A stretch of 26,288 bases of DNA from a bacterium (lineage in GTDB: Bacteria; SZUA-182; DTGQ01; JAFGSM01): positions 1-26,288 of the forward strand of contig JBLIRP010000055.1 in the NCBI GenBank assembly GCA_049472355.1. The letters run 5' to 3'. Numbering within the stretch: the stretch's first letter is position 1; the number at the start of each line of letters is the position of its first letter. The notes under the pieces were generated by a model. The model saw only the letters and a list, made by a program, of their open reading frames with translations, was not told the DNA's origin and did no database searches. The position numbers and the translations under genes are program-made. Shown piece by piece: positions 5,069-20,603 of this stretch.

Positions 5069-7402
5069 TCAGAAGGACCACCAGGGGATCACCTGAATGT
5101 TTGTCGTGGTAGAGGCATACCCGCCCCGGATATCAAAAAAGAGGATCTCCACCAGGTAGGTGCCGGGAAAGTTGGTCTGGAACGTCCATACGGTGTCCCC
5201 GTTTGACACCTTTCCCACCGATCCGATATTGCAGGTGACGTACACCTCGTCACCGTCCGGGTCCTCTGCCCGGGCGTTGAACACGACCTCCTCCCCCGCC
5301 CTGATGATCCTGGGGTTGGGGAGCGCGGTGATGACCGGGGGGTGATTGTACCATGTGCCCGGATTCACGCAGATGATGGTGCGATCAGCCTGGTCAAAGG
5401 CGCCGAAGTGGTCGCGGCAGATCGTGATGACCCGCAGGTTCCCCTCGAATTTCGGAGTCAGCCTGGCAACGCCGCTGAAGGGATCGGCATCGCACTCGAT
5501 CCAGGGCCCATACCGGTAGGCGTGCAATCCCTCGATGAAGATCTCGTAGTACAGGTTGTCCTGATCGTCCCTGATCCGGTTCCCCGGGAGCATGGGGAGA
5601 TGGGTGGTGGCGGGGGTCCTCCCTTGTAGATGGGCGAGGGAGAATATGAAGCAATCGGGATCAACCGACAGGATGATACACTCGGTTTCCTCCCCCACAT
5701 CGAACACACGGGGAAAGATCCTCGCCTGGACCTCCGGGGGGTAGTTCTCGACCGGGTAATTCACCACGGAGACGGGAAACACCAGCTTCTCCACCTTGTT
5801 CTTGTTGATTACCTCCACTGCCACGAGCAGGTCCTCGAAGTACTGGGGGGCGTAGTCGAAGGAGGCGATATGGGGCCACTCCTCCATCCCCGCGTTCCAC
5901 AGGGCCGATTCCAGGGCATGGGTGAGTGCGGGCCCGAAGTGGCCCTTGCCGTATGCGTCGATGGCCTGCATAGTCAGAAACCGGTCCACGATGTATGTGG
6001 GCATGCCGTCATAGGGATCGATGGGCAGGGGACGAACGAGTAATGCGTCGATCCCGCTCCCGCCAAAACCACCGATAGAGGAATTCCACCCGAGCCTCCC
6101 GTGGGTGTGAAGCTCCCCATTCCTGTCCCCGCCGATCCTGAATCGTTGATCGGCAAAAAGGGGAAGGGTGGCGTCGATAAAAAATCCATTGCCCAGGTAT
6201 CGCTCCGCAACCGGATCGGGTGTCCCGAAGTTGGGATCCCCCGGTACCCACCGGCGGGTGTAATCGGGATCGTACAGGGGGCTGTTGGCATCGATCACGT
6301 GGTAGCCGGGATCGAGGGCCAGGAGATCGGCCACCCAGGTGTCCCTGATGCAGTTGGGATCACAGATGAAGTTGTTCTGGTCGAGGAGAAAATTGTCGAT
6401 GTTCCTGATGCTGTGATCGGCGCGGTAGCTGGCGAACAGGAGGAACCGGTAGGGCTCGAAGATCTGGGCGTACAGGGGGCCGATCTCCACCACATCCACC
6501 GCATACCTCTGTGAATAGAGTGAATAATCCTGCGTCCTGAAAATGATGTTGTCCAGTCGGTATCTATGCCCGCAGAATATGAGGGTGTCGGCCCGCACGA
6601 TCCGCCAGTCCCCCTTTCGCTCCTCGGGGATCCCGCCGTATTCTTCCACAGCGTTCTTCACCATCTCGGGGAGATTGACCCAGAGGACATGCCAGGTGCC
6701 GTCGGTGAAATTGCGGCCCAGGGAGATCCGAACGGACAGGGAGTCAGGGGAGGCGGCGCCCGAAAATCCGACCACGGTGGGAAAGTAATCGCACTGCGAA
6801 CAACTGTATGCAGCGGCCTGCACGGGCTTCATGGAAATGGTCACCCGGTGGCCCTTTTCGGTCCTGCACAGCACATCGCACTGAAACATCTCCCATGCGT
6901 CAAGGGCCAGCGGGGTCAAAAACCTGAAGCTCAGGATGGGAAGCGCGGTGAGGTCGATGTATCCCCTGCCTTCATGCCGCTCCGGCGACGGAGGGGTGGC
7001 GAGGCCGATCGAGATGCGGTGTCGTTCGTACTCCCTGCCTATGAGAAATATCGAGGGAGGACGGTACACCTCCAGCACCCTGCTTCCTTCCCTCATATCA
7101 AGAACTGTCCCGAAGAGGGCGGCATATCCCATGCCGAATCCGTACAGGGGATAGGGTGGTTCGTGCTGTCTCCACCCGTGGTTGCAAGGGCTGTCCCAGT
7201 ATTCAAAATTTTCGACCAGGATGTCACCATCCCCTGTTTCCGGATATTGCCAGGCAGGCACGTCGAGTGACTTACTCTCGAATGCAGGGCTTCCCGAGAA
7301 GGCGCCGGTAGGTTCAAAATGGGAGGCATAACTGGTTTCGGCGGGTGCCATGAGCGCTGCAACAACAATAAGAATGAACGGAATATATCGTTTACGACTC
7401 AC
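5069..7402 (-). CDS. Large secreted/surface hypothetical protein (~777 aa) with C-terminal cadherin/Ig-like modules
   Basis: GTG start at 7402 after GGGAGAGGA; signal-peptide-like N-terminus (SRKRYIPFILIVVAALMAPAETSYAS); two related modules NYPPEV...VDPD and NHPPVI...AEDPDGD. Confidence 0.75.
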   Translation of the reverse strand: MSRKRYIPFILIVVAALMAPAETSYASHFEPTGAFSGSPAFESKSLDVPAWQYPETGDGDILVENFEYWDSPCNHGWRQHEPPYPLYGFGMGYAALFGTVLDMREGSRVLEVYRPPSIFLIGREYERHRISIGLATPPSPERHEGRGYIDLTALPILSFRFLTPLALDAWEMFQCDVLCRTEKGHRVTISMKPVQAAAYSCSQCDYFPTVVGFSGAASPDSLSVRISLGRNFTDGTWHVLWVNLPEMVKNAVEEYGGIPEERKGDWRIVRADTLIFCGHRYRLDNIIFRTQDYSLYSQRYAVDVVEIGPLYAQIFEPYRFLLFASYRADHSIRNIDNFLLDQNNFICDPNCIRDTWVADLLALDPGYHVIDANSPLYDPDYTRRWVPGDPNFGTPDPVAERYLGNGFFIDATLPLFADQRFRIGGDRNGELHTHGRLGWNSSIGGFGGSGIDALLVRPLPIDPYDGMPTYIVDRFLTMQAIDAYGKGHFGPALTHALESALWNAGMEEWPHIASFDYAPQYFEDLLVAVEVINKNKVEKLVFPVSVVNYPVENYPPEVQARIFPRVFDVGEETECIILSVDPDCFIFSLAHLQGRTPATTHLPMLPGNRIRDDQDNLYYEIFIEGLHAYRYGPWIECDADPFSGVARLTPKFEGNLRVITICRDHFGAFDQADRTIICVNPGTWYNHPPVITALPNPRIIRAGEEVVFNARAEDPDGDEVYVTCNIGSVGKVSNGDTVWTFQTNFPGTYLVEILFFDIRGGYASTTTNIQVIPWWSF

Positions 7403-7795
7403 GCATCCTCTCCCATGCGGACGTCTATGAACCACCAAGGTGCGGTGGGGATGGGGATTGTTTTTATACTCTATTTTAGTATACCATACTGTGTAGACCA
7501 ATTTGTAGGCGCCGGCATGGAATCGCCTTTCATGGTGCCATGATCCCTCGATCGGGGAGTATATCGAATCGATATTCTCAGCCCCTTCCGACAGGAAGAT
7601 TTTTTGGATTTTATTAAAAAACAGGGCATTGCCGCGTACAATTGCGGTGCGTCGGGGCATTTTCCTTTGCGGTTTTTGGATCGCTCCATGCGCATCCTGC
7701 AGGGTTTCCTAAACTTCTCGCTCATCTCAGCCGATAACATATAGTAGTATTGCATATTTTTTTCCTTCTTTGCGCGGGGTACCATGCATACGCTG

Positions 7796-8632
7796 ATGAA
7801 AGTGACATTCTGGGGAGTGAGGGGTTCGATTCCCAGCCCGAGCAGGAATACCATCCGGTACGGGGGGAATACCTCCTGCGTGAGCATCCACACCACCTCC
7901 GACAAGATCCTGGTACTGGATGCGGGGACCGGCATCCGTGAACTGGGAAAGGCCCTCGCCGGGGGTAGAGACGAGATATTCCTCCTCTTGTCGCACCGGC
8001 ACTGGGACCATATCCAGGGGTTCCCCTTTTTCTGGCCCATCTACGAGACAAACCGGATTGTGAATATTCTTTCGAACGAAGAGGGAAAGAGCATGATATG
8101 CTCGCTTATCAACCAGATGGACGGCGCCCATTTCCCGGTGGAGCCGCAAAGCCTGCCATCCGTGCATCAGTGCATCAACGAGGATGTTTCCACGTTCCTG
8201 AATCACTACGGGTTCAGGGTTTCACGCATTGCCACCAACCATCCGGGCGGCGGCTATGGCTACCGTATCGAAAAAAACGGTCACTCCGTTATCTACCTCA
8301 CCGACAACGAACTCGATCCCCCGTACAAAAAGACCACGGAATTCGAAGGATTCGTGCACTTCTGCAGGCATGCAGACCTGCTCATCCACGACGCACAGTA
8401 CATCGAGAAGGACATGCCGCAAAAACACGGATGGGGGCACAGCCTGGTGAGCCAGGTGCGGCAGTTGGCTGCCCAAGCCGAGGTGAAACACCTGGTGCTC
8501 ACCCACCACGACCCGGACCGCACGGACGACGAGATCGACGCCATACAGGATGAGGTGCGCGCATGGTTCAAACAGCACAGCCTCTCCATTCAATGCACCG
8601 CAGCCTACGAGGGGCTCACCATCGAGATCTGA
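7796..8632 (+). CDS. MBL-fold metallo-hydrolase (RNase Z/class II phosphodiesterase-like; MKVTFWGVRGS family)
   Basis: FWGVRGSIP, YGGNTSCV, LDAGTG, SHRHWDHIQG (HxHxDH), LTDNE, HDAQY, WGHS, THHDP. Confidence 0.9.
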   Translation: MKVTFWGVRGSIPSPSRNTIRYGGNTSCVSIHTTSDKILVLDAGTGIRELGKALAGGRDEIFLLLSHRHWDHIQGFPFFWPIYETNRIVNILSNEEGKSMICSLINQMDGAHFPVEPQSLPSVHQCINEDVSTFLNHYGFRVSRIATNHPGGGYGYRIEKNGHSVIYLTDNELDPPYKKTTEFEGFVHFCRHADLLIHDAQYIEKDMPQKHGWGHSLVSQVRQLAAQAEVKHLVLTHHDPDRTDDEIDAIQDEVRAWFKQHSLSIQCTAAYEGLTIEI

Positions 8633-8822: not shown

Positions 8823-9944
8823 ATGGGAATACGCATGCAGCACAAACTCATCCGGGGGGAACTGGAGCGACGAATACTCCACGGGATCGCCTGCGAATGG
8901 AACACCGCCCTCGCCTTTCTTGGTCCTCGTGAGCGGGGTCACCTGCGCATGCCCCTGTTCAGCCTCACCGACAGGGAAGGCGCATGGGGGCGCTGGTCGA
9001 GCGAGCGCCGCGAGATCTCCCTGAGCAGGAGGCTGGTGCTGCACCATCCCTGGGATTCGGTCCGGGAGGTGCTCCACCACGAAATGGCCCATCAATATGC
9101 GGATGAGGTGCTCGGTGCATTCAACGAGCCCCCGCACGGCCCGTGCTTTCAGCAGGCATGTCATCTGCTCAGGGCGAATCCGAAGGCCTCCGACAACTAC
9201 CCCCCGTTGCGGGAGCGTATCCTGAGCACCATGGCCTGCGAGGAAGACCGATTCCTGGTGAAGGTGAAAAAGCTCCTGTCCCTTGCCGAAAGCGGGAACC
9301 CGCATGAGGCCGAGGCGGCCCTGGCAAAGGCCCATGAGATCATCGCACGGTACAACCTGGGGCATGTGCTCCATGACGGCGGGCGGCATTTCGTGAGCAT
9401 CTTTGTCGGGGAGCCCGCACTCCGTCACAGCCGGGCGGATTATCTCCTTGCCCGCATTCTTCAGGATTTCTATTTCGTTCATGGGATCTGGGTGCCCGCC
9501 TACGTGCTGGAAAAGGGGAAAATGGGGCGGGTCCTCGAGATAAGCGGCACATTGAAGAACGCCCATATGGCATCCTATGTGTACGATTTCGTCCGTCATT
9601 TCATTGACACCAGGTGGAGGGAATATACGAGAAAACAGGGGGTGAACCATGCGACGAGCCTCGACTTTGCCGTGGGCGTCCTGGAGGGATTCCGCGCGCG
9701 CCTTGCAGCCCGTAAAGAAGTAAAACGGAGGCATAGATTGGAACCCGGGCTGATCAGAAGGGAGGACCCGATGCTTGTTGCTTACTGCCGCGTTCGCTAC
9801 CCCACCACCCGAACCTTCAGTCGGAGCATCCATACCCATGATGAGGCCGCGATGAAGGAGGGAAAACGCATCGGCAGAAACCTGGTCATCGCGGAAGGGA
9901 TTAAGGAGCAGGTGAGCCCACAAGGACTTCTTACCGGGAACTGA
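8823..9944 (+). CDS. SprT-like zinc metalloprotease domain plus DUF2786-like domain protein
   Basis: VLHHEMAHQ (HExxH) followed by PHGPCF (SprT-like HG..F); KVKKLLSLAESGNPHEAEAALAKAHEIIARYNL matches the DUF2786 pattern. Start at 8823 or 8835. Confidence 0.82.
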   Translation: MGIRMQHKLIRGELERRILHGIACEWNTALAFLGPRERGHLRMPLFSLTDREGAWGRWSSERREISLSRRLVLHHPWDSVREVLHHEMAHQYADEVLGAFNEPPHGPCFQQACHLLRANPKASDNYPPLRERILSTMACEEDRFLVKVKKLLSLAESGNPHEAEAALAKAHEIIARYNLGHVLHDGGRHFVSIFVGEPALRHSRADYLLARILQDFYFVHGIWVPAYVLEKGKMGRVLEISGTLKNAHMASYVYDFVRHFIDTRWREYTRKQGVNHATSLDFAVGVLEGFRARLAARKEVKRRHRLEPGLIRREDPMLVAYCRVRYPTTRTFSRSIHTHDEAAMKEGKRIGRNLVIAEGIKEQVSPQGLLTGN

Positions 9945-10465: not shown

Positions 10466-11974
10466 ATGAGCTTCAGAGAGTCACTGTTTGAGAGCCTGAA
10501 GGGTGCATTCGTCGAGGAGTCCATCACCGAATACACCATCACCGTCCTTCTGGTCGATGACTCCCGAACGGTGTGCGAGGCGATCAGTGAAATCCTTTCC
10601 GGAGAAAAGGACATCGCCTTTCACTACTGCACCGATCCCGAGGAGGAGGAAGCGGTTGCCGAGCGGGTAAGGCCCACCGTCATCCTCCAGGATCTGGTCA
10701 TGCCCGGAATCGACGGCCTCACCATGGTCAAAAAGCTGCGGGAAAACGAGGTCACCAGGGACGTGCCCATGATCGTGCTCTCCGCCGAGGAGGACCCTCA
10801 AATCAAGGCCAAGGCGTTTGAAACGGGCGCCAATGACTTTATGGTGAAATTCCCCGACACCATGGAGCTGGTCGCCCGGATACGACACCATTCCAAAAGC
10901 TATATCAACCTCCTGCAGCGCAACGAGGCATACCGGGCGCTGGTGGAGAGCCAGCGCAGGCTGGAGATCCGCAATCGTTTCATCATGAAGACCTTCGGAC
11001 GGTATCTTTCGGACGAGGTGGTGAACCAGTTGCTTGAAACCCCCGAAGGACTCCACCTGGGAGGAGAAAAACGGAAGGTGACCATCATGATGTCAGACCT
11101 GCGGGGATTCACCTCCATTAGTGAAAAATTACAGCCGGAACAGGTCATGACCACCATCAACAACTATCTGGAGACCATGACCACCATCATCTTCAAGCAC
11201 CACGGCACCATTGTGGAGTTTATCGGTGACGCCATCCTCTCTGTTTTCGGGGCGCCCACCAATATGGATGATGATGCGGCCAGTGCGGTGGCGTGCGCCG
11301 TCGAGATGCAACTGGCCATGGATGAGGTAAACGAAAGAAACAGGAACGAAGGGCTGCCCAGGCTGAATATGGGGATCGGCATCAACACCGGAGAGGTCAT
11401 CGTCGGGAACATCGGCTCGGTAAAACGGGTAAAATACGGCGTGGTGGGAAGGAATGTGAACCTGGCTTCACGCATAGAATCCCTGACCATCGGCGGGCAG
11501 ATCCTGATATCCGAAAGCACCAGGTATGATATCGGGGATACCCTCAAGTTGGGCAGGCAGATGGAGGTGGAGACAAAGGGGATCGACGAGCCCATCACCG
11601 TTTTCGAGGTGCTCGGATTGGGGGGAGACTATGCCCTCTTCCTCCCCGAGTGCTTTACCGAAGAGCTCCTCATGCTCCAGAAGGAGATCCCTGTTAAATT
11701 CGTTCTGGTCAAGGGCAAGGTGGCTGAAAGTGCTACATGCCCGGGAAGCATCCTGAGGCTTTCCCCAACCAAGGCGCTGGTCAAATCCCCGACAAAGGTG
11801 GACGAGCTCAGCGATGTAAAATTCCTGCTGGTGGGCCAAAACGACGAAGACATACCCATCGACCTCTATGCAAAGGTGGTGGGCCAGGGGGAGGGGACAT
11901 TTCTGGTCCATTTCACCTCCATGCCGAAGGTTACGGAAAACTACCTCAAGGGTATCCTGGATACCTGTCAATAA
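10466..11974 (+). CDS. Response regulator: WspR-like receiver + coiled stalk + class III adenylate/guanylate cyclase + C-terminal PilZ-like beta domain
   Basis: Receiver VLLVDD...ILQDLVMPGIDG...GANDFMVK; cyclase MMSDLRGFT, EFIGDAI, GIGINTGEVIVGNIGS, VNLASRIES, GQILIS. Start codon uncertain; the PilZ-like call is weak. Confidence 0.9.
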   Translation: MSFRESLFESLKGAFVEESITEYTITVLLVDDSRTVCEAISEILSGEKDIAFHYCTDPEEEEAVAERVRPTVILQDLVMPGIDGLTMVKKLRENEVTRDVPMIVLSAEEDPQIKAKAFETGANDFMVKFPDTMELVARIRHHSKSYINLLQRNEAYRALVESQRRLEIRNRFIMKTFGRYLSDEVVNQLLETPEGLHLGGEKRKVTIMMSDLRGFTSISEKLQPEQVMTTINNYLETMTTIIFKHHGTIVEFIGDAILSVFGAPTNMDDDAASAVACAVEMQLAMDEVNERNRNEGLPRLNMGIGINTGEVIVGNIGSVKRVKYGVVGRNVNLASRIESLTIGGQILISESTRYDIGDTLKLGRQMEVETKGIDEPITVFEVLGLGGDYALFLPECFTEELLMLQKEIPVKFVLVKGKVAESATCPGSILRLSPTKALVKSPTKVDELSDVKFLLVGQNDEDIPIDLYAKVVGQGEGTFLVHFTSMPKVTENYLKGILDTCQ

Positions 11975-12053: not shown

Positions 12054-12083
12054 TTGACCTCGCGAAGGGCGGTGGTATATAAA
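12054..12083 (+). promoter_or_regulatory. Putative sigma70 promoter for the giant STAND-like gene
   Basis: TTGACC followed after 16-18 nt by TATATA/TATAAA with an upstream TG. Confidence 0.45.
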
Positions 12084-12193
12084 TGCACATAATTCTGTTA
12101 CATAATGAGGGCTCCGCAGGGATTAACCGGCCTCGATGATCACGGTTATGCGCATTGGCAAGGGACACCGAAAAAATCGGAGGGACAAGAACA

Positions 12194-15100
12194 ATGACTT
12201 CCATTACGTGGCTTCATATCTCTGATTTGCATGCCTGCCATCCGGCACATAAATGCGAGTACCATGAAGTTGCGGAGAAGTTGATCGACGATCTGAACCT
12301 CCTGAAGAGGAAACACGATCTCGCCCCTGACATGATATTCTTTACCGGGGATGCCATATTCGGCAACCCTGCCGGCGGGGAAGGGAAATCGATGCCGGAG
12401 CAGTATGCGGAGGCTGCCGCGTTCATGGAAACCATCCGCACTACGTTCGGGGAACGTGTTCCCAAGAGAAATGTCTTCATCATCCCCGGGAATCACGATG
12501 TGAATCTCACGGTGGACAGCAAGTCCCTCATCCTATGGCTTCGGGAAAAGGCGGACCTTCGAAAACTGACCGACATGATCCACGACCCCAACAGCCTTTG
12601 GCGCTCATATGTGACAAAACTGCGCGAATACCGTGACTTTCTCAAGACGTTCGGCTATGACCACCTCATTGACGATCCCTCCCGGGTGAACTATTCCGAC
12701 ATCAGGGAATTCAACGGCGTGAAGATCGCCATCGCCGGATTCAATTCCGCATGGTCTTCCTCGGGCAAGGGAAAGAGAGAGAAGGGGAAGCTCTGGCTGG
12801 ATGGTGACCGGCAACTGGACCTCTTCCGCTCGACGCTCCCCAAGGCCAACTTTTCCATTGCCTTGATGCACCATCCGGTTGACTGGTTTACCAAGAAGGA
12901 GAGCGCCTTTTTCCTGCAACGATTGGAGTCCGATTTCAAATTCCTGCTCCACGGACACGATCACACGCGCTGGGTGACCCCGCGCAACGAACACACCCGC
13001 ATCGCAGCGGGCACCTGCTATCACCACCGAACCAAGAAATCCGGGTACAATGTCGTGCAATTGAATCTGGAGGAGGGAACGGGCGTCATATGGCTTCGGG
13101 AATATGATCCTGCAGGGCAGGGTGCATGGGCGCCGTGCCGGTCCGATGCGGAAGAGGTCGACGAGCAGGGGCGGCACCGACTGAAGAACGTCGCGTGGCT
13201 GCGCGACCTTCGAGACACCCTCAGCATCGGCACGGGGATGCCGGAGGATGCAGGGGCCCGTTCGTCAATGTATGCAATCCACAGCGGCCTGGAACGAACA
13301 CGGATGGATACGATCCCGTTACTGCCATCCCGGCCTCCGCGGTTGGTTCAAAAATCCTACGAGGTCATGTACAACATCGATCAGTCCGTGCTTCGCGAGG
13401 ACGCCCTGGAGGGAGATCCGACACGGATCAGGGAACTCTTCCTTCCGAAGGAGGACATCGACTTCCGCATCATCACCAGTGAGAATGCCGAAGAGGTGCC
13501 CGCTGAAGAAAAGTCACCCTGCTTCCACGAGCTCAGGACAGATGAGCACATTCAAAGACACTTCATTCCCCTGCCCAAGATCGTGAATCATCTGGATGAA
13601 TGGCTTTCATCAAAAGGGGACCTCCTGTTCACCGGCGCCCCGTTTTGCGGAAAAACGAGCCTCCTCACCTTCCTCTCTCTGGAGGCGCATAAACGATTCG
13701 GGAGCCAGGTGCCCATTGTGCGCCTGAAGACCGGCAAGGGCCTGTCCATCGATGATGTGGAAGACGCCGTGTCAAGGCTCCTACAGCGCCTCGAGCATGC
13801 GGGGGTGATCGGGAAGGAGACGCAGCCCATCATCGTGATCGATGATGTCCATGAACCGGGGACTTTTGCCATATGCAGGGAACTTCTGCGCTCACCCCGG
13901 CAGTGGAGGGTGTGGGGTGCGGCCCGCTGCGCCGAATTCGATGCGATCTCCTCGCAGGAAGGCAATCCATGGGGCAAAAGGGGAATAGTCAAAAATGCCT
14001 GCGATCTGGTGGACGAGGAGGATGTGAGGTTTTTCACCGATACCGTTCTTCGCCCGGTACTCGTTGCCAGAGGCGAGGAGGAACGGATCGACGAGATCAA
14101 TGAGGCGATCATTTCAATGGGCCGGGTCCCGGTCAGGTATCTCTGCCAGATGTGGGACCTCCTCACCAATCGCGCAGGTAAGGGAACCGAACGGTATGCC
14201 TCGCTCATACGGAAGGAACCAACCAGCGTTGAGGAGGTGGTAAAATCGGTTCTTCCGCGTACTATCCCGGGCTTGAAGGCGCTCGTGATTACCGATTTCC
14301 TCAAGGGTCCATCCTGGGAGCTCTTACGATATGTGCTCGGGAAGGTCGAACAATTCGGGGAGGAACTTGCAGGCGCCACCATTGAATCGTTGCGCAGGAC
14401 ATTGGCACTCCTTGACGACCCTGAAGATCCGAAGAGGGTCTTCATGTACAGACCGTTAGGGGAGGAAATCCGCACGCAGGGAAATCTTTCCTCCTTATTT
14501 CAACAGGAAATATGGGAAGGGATCCAGGAATTCCTCGAGGATTGGAACCGCATCAAGGAAGAGGGTATCCCTGAACATCTGTGCGCATTCTGGCTCTCCC
14601 TGTCGGAATGTGCCCAGGCATACGACCAAAAAGAGATTGCGGTTCGGTGCGCTGAAAGGGCGCTCGAGTATGCCTCCGGGGAGCAGGAGATAAAGGCCCT
14701 CTTCGAGATCGCACTGGCCACGAATCGATTGACCGGAAAATGGTGTGAGAACACCATCAACCTCCTGTGGCGAGCGATCGAAAAGTCCGGGCAACTGGAG
14801 AAGGTGACGCTGGACGCTGCGTATGCAAAGGCAATCCTCGGCAACCTCTTCCTCAATATCGTCCCCCCGAACATCAAAAAGGCCGTATCATTTCTTCATG
14901 AGGCAAAGAGCGCCTGCGAATTCCTCGGCGCCGACTCCGACGTCGGACACCTGAATAAGACAATGGCGCTCGCCAAGACAAACCTGGGGGAAATTGAGAT
15001 TTCGGAGGCCATCCACCATGCGCGACATGCACTCGGGACATACCGCAAGCTCAAGAACACCGCCAAGGAGATCGAGAGTCTCTGCCTCCTGGCATATTGC

Positions 15101-18100
15101 CTCCGCATGCAGTCAAATCCCGATTGGGCCGAGGCGATCATCTGTTACCAGGAGGCATTGAAACTGCAGATAGAGCCGGAACAACAGTCGGACCGGGCCC
15201 GCACGCTCTTCCAACTGGCTTTTTGCCTCTACACCCAGCCGGAGACTGATTGGACGGAGGCATTAAAGGCGTCCAGGGAGTCTGTCCGGATTCTCAGGGA
15301 GCGCGGCAATCCACGCGATCTTGTGGATCACATGGTTCAGTATGCCTGGCTGTGCCACCAGCAGCCCGATCCGGATTGGCATGAGGCCGTTTCCACGTAC
15401 CGGGAGGCATTGAGGCTCCTCACCAGCCCGGAAGATCATGCGGATCGTGCACTCATCCTCTACCTTTTGGCATACTGTCTTTCCCATCAACCCACCCCCG
15501 ATTGGGCGGAGTCCGTTACCCACTATCGGGAGGCACTGAACTATCAAGAGACACTGGGACTGGACGCAGACCATGCGCTGACACTGTGTCAATGCGCACT
15601 CTGTCTCCATACGCAGCCCTCCCCGGACTGGACCGGGGCCATCGCCCTGTACCGGGAGGCGCTGAAACTCCTTACGGGTCTTCACCAGCGTACGGATCGG
15701 GCCCAGGCCCTCCATCAACTCGCCCACTGTCTCCACAATCAGCCCGAACCCGACTGGGCGGGTGCCATCACCTGCTACCAGGGCGCCTTGGAGCTGCTGA
15801 CCGATCCCAAACACCGGAAGGAGCGGGCGGAGATATTCTACAGCATTGCCTATTGTCTCCATAGCCAGCTCCAGCCTGACTGGGCAGGGGCCATAACCTG
15901 CTACGAAAGGTCCTTCGAACTGTTGACCGAACCGGACGAACAGGCGGATCGGGCGCAGGACCTCTATCAATTGGCATATTGCCTGCATAACCAGCCGGTG
16001 CCTAAATGGCACCTGGCCATCTCCCGGTACCGCCAGGCACTGGAGCTCTTCACTGCACCCGAGGAACGCTCGGACCGGGCACAAACCTACTATCAACTCG
16101 CCTTCTGCCTGCACAACCAGCCGAAGCCCGATTGGCACCAGGCCATCTCCCACTACCGCCGGGCACTGGAGCTCTTCACCGGACCCGAGGAATACACCGA
16201 TCGCGCCCTGACCCTGTACCAATTGGCATACTGCCTGCACAACCAGCCCAAGCCCGATTGGCACCAGGCCATCTCCTGCTACCGCCAGGCATTGGAGCTC
16301 TTCACCGTAACCGGGGAACATGCCGAGAGGGCGCAGACCCTTTGCCAGTTGGCATACTGCCTGCACCACCAGCCCAAGCCGGATTGGCACGAGGCCATCA
16401 CCCACTACCACGGTGCCCTGACATATTTCATCGATCCCGAGCACCGGATCGAACGGGCATTGATCCTCTGCCAACTCGCCTACTGTCAGTTCAACCAGCC
16501 GCAGCCTGAATGGTGCGAGGCCGTTGCATCCTTTCGGGAGGCGCTCGAGCACCTGACCGGACCCGAGCATCACACGGAGCGGACACAATCACTCTACCGC
16601 CTCGCCTATTGCCTCTACAACCAGCCCGAGCCCGACTGGGTCGAGGCGGTCAGGTACTACCGGGAGGCGATCGAACACCTGACCGGACCCGGGCACCAGG
16701 CGGAGCGTGCACAGTCCCTCCACCGCCTCGCCTATTGCCTCTGCAACCAGCCCAAGCCCGACTGGGCAGGGGCGATCACCGCATCCCTGGAAACGATCGA
16801 GATCATGAAGGCACGCGCCGATACCCAGGGGTTCCTGGATTCGCTCATCCAATATGCATGGATCTGCCACAACCAGGAGTATCCGGATTGGCCGGAGGCG
16901 ATCGAGACATACCGGGAGGCGCTGGAGATTCTTGACGACCCCATATATCTGGAGGCACGGGCGCGCACAATGTACCAATTGGGGTTGTGCCTCTATCGCC
17001 AGACGGAGCCGGAGTGGCCCGAGGCAATCACCTGTTTCATGAAGATCCTGGAACTCCAGACGGAGAACCCCGAGCTGCCGCACCGGGGTCTTACCTTGTA
17101 CCAGATGGGATTTTGTTTCCACAACCAGGAGGAACCCGACTGGTCACGGGCGATCACCTGTTATCGGAAGGCCCTGGAACTGCTGGGGGAACCCGCTCAG
17201 AGGCATGACCGTGCCCGCGCCCTTATTCAACTCGCCACATGTTTTCACACCAAACCAAACCCGGACTGGGAGGAGGCCATTACCTTTTATCGAGAGGCTC
17301 TGGAACTGCTGACGGATCCGGAGCAGGCGGACGAACGGGCGCGCACCCTTGTTCAACTGGCCACATGCCTCCACGACAAGCCTCAACCCGACCTTCCCCT
17401 GGCCATTACCTCCTATGAGCAGGCATTGAATCTGCAGGCGGATCCGGATAAACGAAATGACCGGGCGATTACCCTCGTTCACCTTGCCTCATGCCTTCAT
17501 ACCCAGCCACAGCCGGATCTTGCACAGGCGGCCGGCTGTTATCGGGCGGCCCTTGAGATCCTCACGGAGCCTGAACAGCAACTGGAGCGGGCCAGGGCAT
17601 ATTATTGGCTGGCCTATTGCCTTCACAACCTGCCTGACCCGGACTGGCTCGAATTGGTACACGCATCACGCGAATCGGTGGAGATATTCAAAGGGCTTAA
17701 CAGGCCTCACGAGTTGCTGGACGCCCTTATCCAGCATGCCTGGCTCTGCTACAACCAGCCTGAACCTGCCTGGGGAGAGGCCATAGAAAGCTTCCGGCAC
17801 ATCATAGCACTTCAGATTGAGCCTCACCAGGAGGCGGATCGTGCACGGTCATTGTATCTTTTAGCCTATTGCCTGCATAACCAGCCGGAGCCCGACTGGG
17901 CCGAGGCCATGCAGCGCTATAGGGAGGCACTGGAACTGCAGGAAGGGGATGAATACCGCTCCGAACGGGCCATCACCTTCTATCAGCTTGCATACTGTCT
18001 CCAAAACAGGCCGAACCCGGACTGGGCCGAGGCCATCCGGCTCTACCAGGAGGCGATGGACCTTGTCAAGGATCAGGGGAAAAAGGTGGATCAGGGATTG

Positions 18101-19258
18101 ATCCTCTTCTGGCTGGCGTCCTGCCTGCACAACAAACCCGAGCCCGACTGGGACGGTGCGCTGAAGGCGTCCCGGGAGTCCGTGGCGATCTTCCAGGAAC
18201 TCAACGAGACCGGTGACCTCCTGGATTCCCTGATGCAGTATGCGTGGTTATGCCACAACAAGCCCGAGCCCGACTGGGACGAGGCAATACAGCATTACCA
18301 GGAGGCCCTGACGTTCCAAACGAAGCCGGATCAGCAGGCGGAACGCGCCCTCACCCTCTTCCAACTGGGGTTATGTTCCCACTGCAAACCTGTGCCTGAA
18401 TGGGATCAGGCAATCCACTATTACGATCAGGCTCTCAATCTTCAGACCCCTGAGGAGCTGTCTGCTGACCGCGCGCGCACGCTCTGCAGCCTGGCCTTTT
18501 GCTGTCAGAACAAGCCCGAACCCGATTGGCGCAGGGCTGTCCAGCGCTACCAGGAGGCCATTGAAATCCTCCCCGCATCAGAGCAGCGTGCCGAACGGGC
18601 CAGGGTCCTCTACCAGCTTGCAAATTGCCTGAGCAGGCAACCCAAGCCCGACTGGGACAGCGCAGGCAGGTATGCGCGGGAGGCCCTCGATCTGTCTCGT
18701 ATTCCTGGAGAACGCACCCAAACCCCATTGCCATCCTCTCAATTGGCAAGCATATTCGAGGAGATGTCATCCCCTGATCTGGATGCGGCAGTGAATTTCC
18801 GTCGGGAGACCGTTGAGGCCACCAAGAATGTCAACAGTATCTTCGAGTTGATCGTTGCCGTGGACAGAAAGGGAGAGTTCGAGGAAGGCGACTACTGGGC
18901 GCAGAAGGTACAGGGCACCCGGCTCATCGATATCGACGAGCCCGACCGGGAGGCGCTGGAGGACCAAAGGACGGCCTTCCTGGAACTGCGCAGGGATTCA
19001 CTCGACGGGGTGCTCACCATTGCCGACAGGCTCCGCGACGGGCCGCAGCATTCGCGCGCACTCTCCCTGGCCGCCATCGCGCACTTTGCCAGGGAGGAAA
19101 ACGCCGCCGCGTACCAGGACATTGTCAATGCGCAGGCAAGCCGCGAGGACATCTCCTGGCTGCGGAAGATTGCGGAGGGATACTTCAGGCGATACCGCCG
19201 GGACAAGTTGGGGGGGTTCCTGCAAATGGTCGAGGAGGTCTCCCAGGGCCGGCCTTGA
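12194..19258 (+). CDS. NLR/STAND-like protein (~2354 aa): calcineurin-like metallophosphoesterase + P-loop NTPase + long TPR-like repeat array
   Basis: All five metallophosphoesterase motifs (HISDLH, FTGD, PGNHD, MHHP, HGHDH); Walker A GAPFCGKTS (~13634), Walker B IIVIDDVH (~13829); 42-aa helical repeats. ATG at 12194 follows GGAGGGA. Confidence 0.88.
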   Translation: MTSITWLHISDLHACHPAHKCEYHEVAEKLIDDLNLLKRKHDLAPDMIFFTGDAIFGNPAGGEGKSMPEQYAEAAAFMETIRTTFGERVPKRNVFIIPGNHDVNLTVDSKSLILWLREKADLRKLTDMIHDPNSLWRSYVTKLREYRDFLKTFGYDHLIDDPSRVNYSDIREFNGVKIAIAGFNSAWSSSGKGKREKGKLWLDGDRQLDLFRSTLPKANFSIALMHHPVDWFTKKESAFFLQRLESDFKFLLHGHDHTRWVTPRNEHTRIAAGTCYHHRTKKSGYNVVQLNLEEGTGVIWLREYDPAGQGAWAPCRSDAEEVDEQGRHRLKNVAWLRDLRDTLSIGTGMPEDAGARSSMYAIHSGLERTRMDTIPLLPSRPPRLVQKSYEVMYNIDQSVLREDALEGDPTRIRELFLPKEDIDFRIITSENAEEVPAEEKSPCFHELRTDEHIQRHFIPLPKIVNHLDEWLSSKGDLLFTGAPFCGKTSLLTFLSLEAHKRFGSQVPIVRLKTGKGLSIDDVEDAVSRLLQRLEHAGVIGKETQPIIVIDDVHEPGTFAICRELLRSPRQWRVWGAARCAEFDAISSQEGNPWGKRGIVKNACDLVDEEDVRFFTDTVLRPVLVARGEEERIDEINEAIISMGRVPVRYLCQMWDLLTNRAGKGTERYASLIRKEPTSVEEVVKSVLPRTIPGLKALVITDFLKGPSWELLRYVLGKVEQFGEELAGATIESLRRTLALLDDPEDPKRVFMYRPLGEEIRTQGNLSSLFQQEIWEGIQEFLEDWNRIKEEGIPEHLCAFWLSLSECAQAYDQKEIAVRCAERALEYASGEQEIKALFEIALATNRLTGKWCENTINLLWRAIEKSGQLEKVTLDAAYAKAILGNLFLNIVPPNIKKAVSFLHEAKSACEFLGADSDVGHLNKTMALAKTNLGEIEISEAIHHARHALGTYRKLKNTAKEIESLCLLAYCLRMQSNPDWAEAIICYQEALKLQIEPEQQSDRARTLFQLAFCLYTQPETDWTEALKASRESVRILRERGNPRDLVDHMVQYAWLCHQQPDPDWHEAVSTYREALRLLTSPEDHADRALILYLLAYCLSHQPTPDWAESVTHYREALNYQETLGLDADHALTLCQCALCLHTQPSPDWTGAIALYREALKLLTGLHQRTDRAQALHQLAHCLHNQPEPDWAGAITCYQGALELLTDPKHRKERAEIFYSIAYCLHSQLQPDWAGAITCYERSFELLTEPDEQADRAQDLYQLAYCLHNQPVPKWHLAISRYRQALELFTAPEERSDRAQTYYQLAFCLHNQPKPDWHQAISHYRRALELFTGPEEYTDRALTLYQLAYCLHNQPKPDWHQAISCYRQALELFTVTGEHAERAQTLCQLAYCLHHQPKPDWHEAITHYHGALTYFIDPEHRIERALILCQLAYCQFNQPQPEWCEAVASFREALEHLTGPEHHTERTQSLYRLAYCLYNQPEPDWVEAVRYYREAIEHLTGPGHQAERAQSLHRLAYCLCNQPKPDWAGAITASLETIEIMKARADTQGFLDSLIQYAWICHNQEYPDWPEAIETYREALEILDDPIYLEARARTMYQLGLCLYRQTEPEWPEAITCFMKILELQTENPELPHRGLTLYQMGFCFHNQEEPDWSRAITCYRKALELLGEPAQRHDRARALIQLATCFHTKPNPDWEEAITFYREALELLTDPEQADERARTLVQLATCLHDKPQPDLPLAITSYEQALNLQADPDKRNDRAITLVHLASCLHTQPQPDLAQAAGCYRAALEILTEPEQQLERARAYYWLAYCLHNLPDPDWLELVHASRESVEIFKGLNRPHELLDALIQHAWLCYNQPEPAWGEAIESFRHIIALQIEPHQEADRARSLYLLAYCLHNQPEPDWAEAMQRYREALELQEGDEYRSERAITFYQLAYCLQNRPNPDWAEAIRLYQEAMDLVKDQGKKVDQGLILFWLASCLHNKPEPDWDGALKASRESVAIFQELNETGDLLDSLMQYAWLCHNKPEPDWDEAIQHYQEALTFQTKPDQQAERALTLFQLGLCSHCKPVPEWDQAIHYYDQALNLQTPEELSADRARTLCSLAFCCQNKPEPDWRRAVQRYQEAIEILPASEQRAERARVLYQLANCLSRQPKPDWDSAGRYAREALDLSRIPGERTQTPLPSSQLASIFEEMSSPDLDAAVNFRRETVEATKNVNSIFELIVAVDRKGEFEEGDYWAQKVQGTRLIDIDEPDREALEDQRTAFLELRRDSLDGVLTIADRLRDGPQHSRALSLAAIAHFAREENAAAYQDIVNAQASREDISWLRKIAEGYFRRYRRDKLGGFLQMVEEVSQGRP
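15065..18695 (+). repeat. Intragenic tandem array of 29 x 126-bp (42-aa) TPR-like repeats
   Basis: Consensus RAxxLYQLAYCLHNQPxPDWxEAIxxYREALELxTxPExxxD. The anchor Trp codons at 15125 and 18653 are 3528 bp apart, exactly 28 x 126. Confidence 0.95.
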
Positions 19259-19262
19259 GGGG

Positions 19263-20603
19263 CTATTGGGCTCCTGCCGCATCCATGGAGAAGTTGACTT
19301 CCTCAGCCTGATCGCCGAACACCCGTTTGAAGATCGTGTTCACGTGCTGCAGGTGATAGTGCAGGGAAAAGGCATTTTCCAGATCGCCCTTGGTGAGGAC
19401 ATCCCTTACGGATGGGTCCCTTTCCAGGGATGCCTTGAACTCCCCTCTCCGCTGCCATCCCTTCATGGCATTTCGTTGAACGACGCCGTAGGCATCCTCC
19501 CTGCTCATCCCCCTCTTCACCAATTCCAGGAGCACCCGCTGGGAAAAGATCAGCCCGCCGGTGAGCTCCAGGTTTTCCCTCATACGCTCCGGATAGACCA
19601 GGAGGTTCTCCATGAGCCGGGTAAAGCGGGCAAGCATATGGTCGAGGAGGATGGTGGTATCAGGGCATATGATCCGTTCCACGGAGGAGTGGCTGATATC
19701 ACGCTCATGCCACAGGGCCACGTTCTCCAGGGCGGCCTGGGCATTGGACCTGACCAGGCGGGCGAGCCCGCAGATCTGCTCCGACACCACCGGATTCCGC
19801 TTGTGAGGCATCGCCGAAGACCCCTTTTGCCCGGGGGTGAAACACTCCTCCACCTCGAGCACCTCCGTTCGTTGAAGATGACGGATCTCCAGGGCGAATT
19901 TGTCGAGCGAGGAGGCGATGATCGCCAGGGTGACAAAGAATTCGGCCAACCGGTCCCTCTGGATGATCTGGGTTGAAACGGAGGCCGGGGTGAGCCCCAG
20001 ATGATCACATACATATGCCTCTATCTCTGGGGGGCAGTTGGCGAAGGTCCCTACGGCGCCGGAGATCTTTCCCACCCTCACGGCATCCCGCGCCCTCTCC
20101 AGACGGGTCACATTCCTTTCCATCTCGGCATACCAGAGTGCCATCTTGAGTCCGAAGGTGATGGGCTCGGCATGCACGCCGTGGGAACGACCGATCATGG
20201 CCGCCAGGCGATACTGAAATGCCTTTTTCTCGAGCACATCGAGCAGGGCCCTGCAATCCCCGATCAGGATGTCCGCTGCCTGGGTAAGCTGGACGCCCAG
20301 GCAGGTATCCAGGACATCCGAGGAGGTCATTCCCATATGGATGAACCGCGCATGCTCCCCCACCCGCTCAGAAACAGAGGTGAGGAAGGCAATGACGTCG
20401 TGCTTGACCTCGTGCTCGATCTCGTCGATACGTTGGATGTCGAATCCCGCCTTCTCCTTGATGACCGCCAAGGCCTTCTCGGGCACGACACCCATTCGTG
20501 CCCAGGCCTCACAGGCGAGGATCTCGATTTGGAGCCAGATCCGGAACTTGTTCTCAGGCTCCCAGATGCGCCCCATCTCGGGCCGTGTATAGCGTTCTAT
20601 CAT
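19263..20603 (-). CDS. purB: Adenylosuccinate lyase
   Basis: MIERYTRPEM, KHDVIAF, TSSDVLDT, GRSHGVHAEP, GSSAMPHKRNP signature, WHERDISHSSVER. Confidence 0.98.
   Translation of the reverse strand: MIERYTRPEMGRIWEPENKFRIWLQIEILACEAWARMGVVPEKALAVIKEKAGFDIQRIDEIEHEVKHDVIAFLTSVSERVGEHARFIHMGMTSSDVLDTCLGVQLTQAADILIGDCRALLDVLEKKAFQYRLAAMIGRSHGVHAEPITFGLKMALWYAEMERNVTRLERARDAVRVGKISGAVGTFANCPPEIEAYVCDHLGLTPASVSTQIIQRDRLAEFFVTLAIIASSLDKFALEIRHLQRTEVLEVEECFTPGQKGSSAMPHKRNPVVSEQICGLARLVRSNAQAALENVALWHERDISHSSVERIICPDTTILLDHMLARFTRLMENLLVYPERMRENLELTGGLIFSQRVLLELVKRGMSREDAYGVVQRNAMKGWQRRGEFKASLERDPSVRDVLTKGDLENAFSLHYHLQHVNTIFKRVFGDQAEEVNFSMDAAGAQ

Follow-up and report, generated by a model that had tools for sequence, protein, structure and literature searches.

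Proteins in which an effector enzyme, a STAND-class NTPase and a tetratricopeptide repeat (TPR) sensor follow one another are usually read as antiphage on sight. One such protein, P0001, is encoded by a giant gene residing in a stretch of 26,288 nucleotides of bacterial DNA (GenBank assembly GCA_049472355.1, contig JBLIRP010000055.1, positions 1 to 26,288; the window in what follows), and several described systems come close to it. DS-8 (DefensePredictor; NF053861) and PDC-S60 are, as P0001, single proteins in which an N-terminal SMPDL3A-like metallophosphoesterase (MPE) is followed by a STAND-class NTPase. Avs/AVAST receptors (EfAvs5, PDB 9jap) share with it the order effector, STAND core, helical sensor, and Avs5 is the top Foldseek match (E 5e-8, TM-score 0.32). 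MalT and PH0952 (PDB 8bob, 6mfv) carry a nucleotide-binding domain (NBD), a helical domain (HD), a winged-helix domain and an arm ahead of a TPR sensor, as P0001 does, and give the longest low-deviation alignments (351 and 324 residues, root-mean-square deviation, rmsd, about 6). Fungal NB-ARC/NACHT-TPR NLRs have TPRs of 42 residues as P0001 has, and their effector swapping and variable concave sites recall the distant members of the clade described below (PMC4986451).

P0001 differs from each of these systems. DS-8 has a NACHT, whereas the NTPase of P0001 lacks both the D[GAS]hDE signature and any NACHT profile match; profile NF053861 covers only the MPE of P0001 (273 of 994 positions; the score, 108 bits, lies below the cut-off, 790), and P0001, with 2354 residues and 29 TPRs, is the product of a stable single-copy gene. 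Unlike Avs receptors, it matches no Avs profile, has an MPE as effector, a much longer sensor and no defence-island context. In contrast to MalT and PH0952, it has an N-terminal enzyme, no DNA-binding output was found, and the repeats are 29 against 6 in PH0952; since identity is 13-14%, the likeness is one of analogy, not of orthology. The repeats are diverged, stand in fixed order and are under purifying selection at groove sites, unlike those of fungal NLRs. By the tests run, P0001 appears to be a STAND outside the NACHT/DS-8, Avs and named nSTAND families. MPE-STAND fusions and 42-residue TPRs are already known; new are the unnamed NTPase clade, the frozen sensor of 28-29 repeats, the loss of the effector, and the links to cyclic GMP (cGMP) and glycogen. 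The reading tentatively preferred here, with confidence just short of even, is that P0001 is a domesticated NLR-like switch, by now encoded by a stable signalling gene, which gates hydrolysis of a cyclic nucleotide, probably cGMP, on a fixed host cue.

Domain organization of P0001

A sequence-only reading had described one giant protein with an intact N-terminal MPE, a Walker A/B NTPase with a strand ending VWGAAR, and about 1200 residues of 29 repeats, and all these parts were located in a single open reading frame (ORF; Table 1). The MPE carries DLH (residues 11-13), GD (52-53), GNHD (99-102), HH (226-227) and GHDH (254-257), motifs retained in every MPE-bearing relative checked. It scores 47 bits with PF00149 (cut-off 21.5), and is the sole member of its MPE family found in the genome of the window (G000; G001 and the other G numbers stand for further genomes compared). 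A sequence search of residues 1-903 against the PDB gave no match. In a model of residues 1-860 built on 31 relatives (predicted local distance difference test, pLDDT, 79.9), residues 1-334 match SMPDL3B (structural Z 21.4), acid sphingomyelinase (20.8), Rv0805 (19.5), purple acid phosphatase (19.4) and Mre11 (18.6). The MPE fold is confirmed at the level of the model, which leaves the substrate unfixed.

Residues 420-856 match in structure Avs5 (Z 14.2, rmsd 23 over 295 aligned residues), MalT (Z 14.0, rmsd 6.2 over 351), PH0952 (Z 12.4, rmsd 6.3 over 324) and NRC2 (Z 12.4, rmsd 4.9 over 294), with AAA+ proteins scoring just below the STANDs. The alignments span residues 447-856 for MalT, 423-856 for PH0952 and 457-820 for NRC2. 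The top four Foldseek matches of a separate model of residues 379-947 (pLDDT 68.7) are all STANDs, with low TM-scores (0.22-0.32). Because of these matches the modelled core is assigned to the STAND class, as the sequence-only reading had proposed. A P-loop NBD with Walker A and B, and a helical domain with GxxP followed by a winged helix, are present as in the class. GK[ST] of Walker A and the first Asp of Walker B are invariant in the 7 copies of the order. An arginine at sensor 1, after strand 4, is a further feature of STAND NTPases; the Arg of VWGAAR is found in P0001, in most relatives and in the MPE-bearing copies, and has been lost in G007 (WGAAG) and G010 (WYAIT).

Walker B reads DDVH in P0001 and DN[VIA]H in relatives, and thus departs from the NACHT signature D[GAS]hDE, as given in bioRxiv 2022.07.19.500537. 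PF05729 (NACHT) has no match in P0001 or in the G000 genome, and by these tests the NTPase is not a NACHT. No NACHT, NB-ARC, nSTAND1-6 or Avs profile of the Pfam, PADLOC and NCBIfam sets matched the NTPase (PADLOC, 0 families on residues 370-903), which bears out the earlier statement that no named Avs type can be assigned. Pfam on the cut-out NTPase returned only AAA (E 2e-5, 25 bits) and weak AAA_22/25, and hhalign against one nSTAND1-type protein reached a probability of 29%. The helical arm includes a block of about 85 residues (about 14741-14998) that the 5 aligned order members have and the 4 aligned distant members lack.

The 29 repeats are exactly 42 residues each, without indels, with a mean pairwise identity of 41% and a maximum of about 82%. 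The period is a common one, shared by most TPRs of fungal NLRs (PMC4986451). By mapping onto the TPR consensus, and not onto a model, positions 14, 17, 18, 21, 24 and 25 of the repeat are predicted to line the groove. These are rich in Tyr, Phe, Trp, Gln, His and Asn in P0001, a composition which would fit a sugar or a peptide ligand. Pfam found no match in the C-terminal 200 residues, so no DNA-binding helix-turn-helix output was found.

An unnamed NTPase clade and a mobile effector

A profile of the NTPase from the 7 genomes found 38 matches among 1.84 billion representatives, one of which (P0039, a saposin) was false and was dropped; 18 were read and 16 scanned, most of the others being short fragments. 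The NTPase defines a rare clade with no name so far. No description of the clade, or of its cGMP and glycogen links, was found in the literature searched (most subscription papers and supplements lay outside the search), and a search with the NTPase of phage, plasmid and viral-contig collections gave no match. Close members long enough to reach it have in common the PxP[DE]W repeat. The heads vary: MPEs in P0012, P0014, P0016, P0017 (partial), P0004 and P0170, EAD1 in P0018, TIR in P0021, a protein kinase in P0026, and conflict-type GT4 in two distant matches, P0034 and P0038. A supposed effector-less member, P0013, was rejected as truncated, as its cluster mate P0170 carries the MPE; P0015 may likewise be truncated.

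The clade holds shuffling and frozen states side by side. In distant members repeats are near-identical (maximum identity 0.94-1.0), their number differs within 90% clusters (9-10; 8 and 12; 11-12), and groove positions are the most variable (p <0.01 in 4 of the 4 examined). Fungal NLRs are described as having 42-residue TPRs that are strongly conserved within an array, swapped effectors and variable concave-face sites (PMC4986451). Since groove positions vary most in distant members, as they do there, the comparison supports both the groove assignment and an NLR-like, immune ancestry of the clade.

The MPE is a mobile module, and those of its relatives that have a downstream Walker A carry NACHT, nSTAND1/4/6, FGE, LRR or TPR partners. 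The same subfamily is also joined to Ser/Thr kinase-histidine kinase-receiver proteins (P0066, P0068-P0070 and others), a signalling use without STAND. The MPE of P0001 is not joined in the MPE tree to those of distant clade members. The deep forks of this tree are weak, and both an ancient retention of the MPE and an early swap would be compatible with it.

Distribution, inheritance and selection

The giant gene was found in 7 of the 20 genomes of this small phylum without cultured members, all of them among the 13 of one order, in two families and as one copy each; it was not found in the 7 phylum genomes outside the order, nor was a paralogue found in the G000 genome (87.5% complete). NTPase identity (92, 64, 56, 53-58, 53 and 51%) declines along with the identity of PNPase (95, 81, 81, 76 and 61%; G010 gave no PNPase match). 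All nine copies fall into a single clade (100/100). A first tree, built with long outgroups, gave no resolution; the approximately unbiased (AU) test was run on a tree without eight of its rows that were long or distant, and a taxonomy-like tree was not rejected (p 0.13). Inheritance was probably mostly vertical, one transfer within the order being possible.

Five complete arrays were compared; each is made of 28 or 29 repeats and has its variant repeats at the same positions. Repeat identity is higher in register (0.61/0.56/0.54) than off register (0.46/0.42/0.43), even across families (0 of 5000 permutations), the register having been chosen manually, with a single gap introduced at repeat 13. 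The ratio of nonsynonymous to synonymous substitution rates (dN/dS) between G000 and G001 is 0.17 for the gene and 0.18 for the repeats, against 0.06-0.18 for seven neighbours, and within the repeats falls to 0.062 at groove positions, being 0.208 elsewhere. Changes hit 5 of 116 variable groove positions and 33 of 203 other variable helical positions (Fisher p 0.001, from one genome pair and with sites that are not independent). The groove sites that diversify in distant members are frozen in this lineage, under purifying selection. P0001 falls outside NLRs of high internal conservation, its maximum repeat identity being 0.82 (against >85%), the repeat number in the complete arrays of the order only 28-29 and the groove dN/dS low.

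Effector-less orthologues and glycogen-type genes

In G005, G007 and G010 the giant gene begins 30-65 residues before the NTPase module, and no MPE is found upstream. G010 keeps a clear MPE tail, made of the last strand and helix (28.2 bits, 0 of 500 shuffles), the remnant is weak in G007 (7.9 bits, 1 of 500 shuffles), and G005 has none. As the tail in G010 is recognizable, the enzyme was cut off in at least the family of G010, and the full-length sensor has persisted in the three orthologues without an effector of its own. The G007 and G010 copies (P0007, P0008) are also those devoid of the sensor-1-like Arg; the G007 copy is without most of the C-terminal cap, and a transposase lies downstream.

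A small gene for an AMPK-type, glycogen-binding CBM48 protein lies 5' of the effector-less gene in all three genomes, with a GT4 gene in between in two (G007, G010). The CBM48-GT4 pair is located elsewhere in the genome of G004, and in G000, G001 and G004 a GT4 copy sits 5' of a GH57 branching enzyme. In this glycogen-synthase-like GT4 the Gly-Gly loop is missing, along with an Arg, a Lys and the two Glu of E-x7-E, residues which are established as catalytic and which are present in MshA and in an intact paralogue (G000:C82:18878-20074, beside GH57-like genes); by these residues it is catalytically dead. Dead GT4 genes (L078:8980-10374, minus strand, corresponding to G000:C62; L018:8424-9800, plus strand) are conserved across the order and present in each of the 7 genomes that carry the giant gene, lying next to it in 2. 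A complex prediction of the dead GT4 with the STAND core and arm (residues 420-947, the repeats lying outside the input) scored 0.00, which speaks neither for nor against a contact. AMPK-type CBM48 proteins that stand alone and have a basic tail at the N-terminus are encoded at L014:3214-3543, L018:7997-8377, L019:3241-3573, L081:3932-4351 and G000:C145:5988-6296, several paralogues occurring per genome.

The upstream cyclase

G000, G001, G002 and G004, which belong to one genus, have kept the MPE, and in all four the giant gene follows a block formed by genes for a metallo-beta-lactamase-type (MBL) hydrolase, a SprT-like protein, a coiled-coil protein and a cyclase. The cyclase carries KYGVVG and a Glu specifying guanylate (VEFIGD, E251 counted from the ATG at 10466), and has as best PDB matches 6fht and 2w01 (Cya2 and its E488K fusion; E 3e-62). 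In Synechocystis Cya2 the same residue, E488, sets GTP specificity, and E488K switches the enzyme to ATP, as reported in PMC5995499. The upstream cyclase differs from Cya2 in having a receiver, which is WspR-like, instead of CHASE2 and a membrane span. The Glu is retained in 4 of 4 orthologues, which were found in the 4 MPE-bearing genomes only, of 20, and in G005, G007 and G010 the top-scoring cyclase match carries Lys. Nine cyclase-like ORFs occur in G000: the upstream cyclase is the sole one seen with Glu, four have Lys and four were not parsed. It is predicted to be a Cya2-type guanylate cyclase. Guanylate cyclases are rare in bacteria. Pycsar was considered and rejected: PycC matches cover the class III core only, and no Pycsar effector is seen beside the gene.

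Proposed role and alternatives

The mechanism of the proposed switch may be drawn by analogy with PH0952 and with MalT, a STAND switched by a maltodextrin (PMC6468293). At rest, P0001 would be an ADP-bound monomer held shut by the arm and the repeats. A ligand lodged in the TPR groove would open it, ATP would bind, and oligomerization would follow; clustering of the MPE domains in the oligomer may then activate them. Because a Cya2-type cyclase, controlled by its receiver, is encoded just upstream, the substrate would be a cyclic nucleotide, most likely cGMP, and P0001 would end the cGMP signal on cue. The cue, the weakest step, may be a fixed molecule of the host, one linked to the state of its alpha-glucan (glycogen), as effector-less orthologues sit behind the CBM48 gene and the dead GT4. 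A fuller version, in our judgement unlikely, holds that an NLR-type immune receptor was domesticated for metabolism, with its groove frozen onto a glycogen-linked cue, so as to gate cGMP hydrolysis in the genus and to work enzyme-free in other genera. Were host signalling the function, P0001 would show an immune receptor becoming a regulator, a route to MalT-like proteins, would add a rare bacterial cGMP circuit, and would warn against defence calls based on architecture only; were the fuller version true, a switch of a STAND receptor from immunity to housekeeping would be traceable, along with a new bacterial cGMP circuit.

Several observations weigh against host signalling. Structure does not fix the MPE substrate, because the best match leads phosphatases and Mre11 by no more than 3 Z. 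The pairing of cyclase and MPE is limited to one genus, and counts as one event; a Sua5 gene separates cyclase and giant gene in G002, and the giant gene seemingly has its own promoter, apart from the cyclase. The dead GT4 is not adjacent to the giant gene in G000, and also occurs in G006 and G012, two genomes in which no giant gene was found; an exact co-occurrence of the two was rejected on this ground. The giant gene is dispensable, since four order genomes of 96-98% completeness yielded no copy of it (two incomplete genomes gave none either), and the best tree groups G005 with G007 and G010 (88/98), contradicting taxonomy. The closest relatives of the MPE appear to be mostly fused to NACHT/STAND modules: among the best 120 of 144, one of which is the G002 copy, 67 of 119 carry a downstream Walker A. 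DS-8, with the same type of effector, is antiphage and needs both MPE and ATPase, the substrate being given as unknown in PMC13092281. Purifying selection is compatible, too, with a receptor that recognizes a conserved phage fold.

The last points lead to an antiphage NLR-like receptor of the DS-8/Avs kind, a real possibility, if well short of even, in which repeats bind a conserved phage fold, the STAND oligomerizes and the MPE destroys a needed nucleotide, the sensor being frozen together with its target. The effector-STAND-TPR layout speaks for it, as do the matches of the MPE, restricted to its region, to DS8_antiphage (108 bits) and PDC-S60 (E 2e-34), and the TIR, EAD1, kinase and GT4 heads of the clade, all listed as conflict effectors in PMC8195603 and bioRxiv 2022.07.19.500537. 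The near-identical repeats, changing repeat number and groove variability of distant members, as in fungal NLRs (PMC4986451), the patchy presence in the order and the toxin-antitoxin genes 3' of the G004 copy point the same way. However, the window contains no defence island, and PADLOC detects only the MPE and generic TPRs on the whole protein and generic matches in neighbours (PycC on the cyclase core, a weak MBL). A single syntenic copy under purifying selection, three orthologues without effector, and the lack of matches in phage, plasmid and viral-contig collections also argue against defence. Of the sequence-only reading, therefore, the NLR-like pattern stands, upheld by layout and by an effector-swapping ancestry, and the defence role is unproven: the homologues turned out to be present once each in 7 of the 13 order genomes, to keep their synteny in the genus and to be set among purine, glycogen-type, signalling and housekeeping genes, the exceptions being the toxin-antitoxin genes in G004 and the transposase in G007, and conserved single-copy genes away from defence loci, which is largely what is observed, had been named there as speaking against it. 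If P0001 is nevertheless antiphage, an unnamed STAND clade would possess a very long sensor, directed at a target that has stayed the same throughout an entire order. Under either reading the position-specific groove code can be put to the test.

The plant receptor ZAR1 guards pseudokinases, and P0001 might similarly be a guard or decoy receptor, its repeats binding a protein of the host, be it dead GT4, CBM48 protein or cyclase, and firing once an invader alters or removes that protein. We regard this as improbable. A dead enzyme is conserved beside the effector-less STAND in G007 and G010 and present in all giant-gene genomes, and the frozen groove fits a host partner; yet the GT4 lies apart from the giant gene in 5 of the 7, two further genomes have the GT4 although no giant gene was found in them, and the MPE-less copies have no known effector. 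Very improbable, finally, is that the repeats form a long scaffold, on glycogen granules for instance, carrying along the MPE as a constitutive phosphodiesterase, with a minor role for the ATP switch. The sensor-1-like Arg lost in two copies would agree with it, as would a 30-residue insert tolerated by G005 in the helical domain and the Walker A of P0001, which has Phe at a position usually held by Gly. The invariant Walker A and B residues and the Arg kept in MPE-bearing copies do not agree with a scaffold, and the domesticated switch is retained as the preferred reading.

Organization of the locus and other observations

The features of the locus are collected in Table 1. The giant gene is flanked by the cyclase gene and convergent purB, amid purine and housekeeping genes, and its GC content (0.58) is ordinary for the window. 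The ATG start is backed by the ribosome-binding site and by relatives starting MTSITW. A promoter candidate is a conserved island in G000, G001 and G004, the remaining spacer having diverged in G004; it is not among the outputs of a consensus scan. Because the promoter-like island is conserved, the sequence suggests that the giant gene is transcribed separately from the cyclase.

Table 1. Coordinates (window positions) of the giant gene, its parts and its neighbours
Feature	Position	Strand	Basis or remark
MBL hydrolase	7784-8632	+	block kept 5' of cyclase and giant gene
SprT-like/DUF2786 protein	8823-9944	+	block kept 5' of cyclase and giant gene
Coiled-coil protein, 107 aa	9974-10297	+	block kept 5' of cyclase and giant gene
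Receiver - class III cyclase - weak PilZ-like protein	10466..11974	+	Pfam (PilZ only E 0.13)
Candidate sigma-70-type promoter, TTGACC (12054-12059) ... TATATAAA (12076-12083)	12054..12083	+	read by eye
Ribosome-binding site GGAGGG, 9 nt 5' of ATG	12179..12184	+	GGAG retained in G001, G004
Giant MPE-STAND-TPR gene (P0001)	12194..19258	+	single ORF, 2354 aa
Calcineurin-like MPE, aa 1-347, five metal-binding motifs all intact	12194..13234	+	PF00149, motifs, structural matches
Linker, low model confidence	13235..13453	+	pLDDT <50 at aa 347-380
Predicted STAND core (NBD-HD1-winged helix; inner borders approximate)	13454..14488	+	motifs, structural matches
Walker A GAPFCGKT, aa 481-488	13634-13657	+	motif
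Walker B IIVIDDVH, aa 546-553	13829-13852	+	motif
Sensor-1-like VWGAAR, aa 573-578	13910-13927	+	motif
GxxP motif (GRVP)	14120-14131	+	invariant Pro
Helical arm	14489..15034	+	dN/dS 0.085, G000 vs G001
29 x 42-aa TPR-like repeats, PxPDW loop	15035..18688	+	aa 948-2165; Pfam TPR_12
Variant Q[YH]AW repeats 3, 15, 22, 26	15287, 16799, 17681, 18185	+	array not uniform
C-terminal helical cap common to family	18689..19255	+	27-34% identity to C-termini of 6/9 family proteins tested
purB, convergent, 4 nt past giant gene's stop	19263..20603	-	ORF list and Pfam

The order of the MBL hydrolase, SprT-like and coiled-coil genes is identical in G001, G002 and G004, with single genes inserted. The MBL hydrolase has a below-cut-off match to the cyclic-nucleotide phosphodiesterase model NF041851 (E 3e-11), and may be a second enzyme of the block degrading cyclic nucleotides; of the 5 other order genomes tested, 2 gave matches, all of them distant. 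In G004 the giant gene is directly followed (L010:16876-18926, minus strand) by a HEPN and nucleotidyltransferase pair and Phd/YefM antitoxin genes. An 863-residue protein encoded at 5069-7660 (minus strand) has a weak C-terminal Ig-like match only (Big_9, E 0.003), is 90% identical in G001 and is absent from the corresponding site in G004. Rfam and tRNA scans gave no match. Five open frames of 3200-4600 residues lie elsewhere in G000 (contigs C65, C72, C127, C86 and C92). The helical-domain insert of the G005 copy (L014, P0010 residues 315-342), in frame and of about 30 residues, resembles a repeat elsewhere in G005 (79% over 28 residues, L083:3027-3110), and is likely a small mobile repeat inside the gene.

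Contigs from two metatranscriptome runs of one study cover the giant gene, mostly from relatives 90-99% alike; such contigs cannot show expression, and DNA carry-over is possible. No joint skipping whole repeats is listed among them, and one back-pointing joint, in X12 (17907 to 17582), coincides with a loose end. A metagenome scan yielded, among 262 candidates, one locus that is a close relative of the G002 copy, and half of the sampled words sit in runs labelled marine sediment metagenome.

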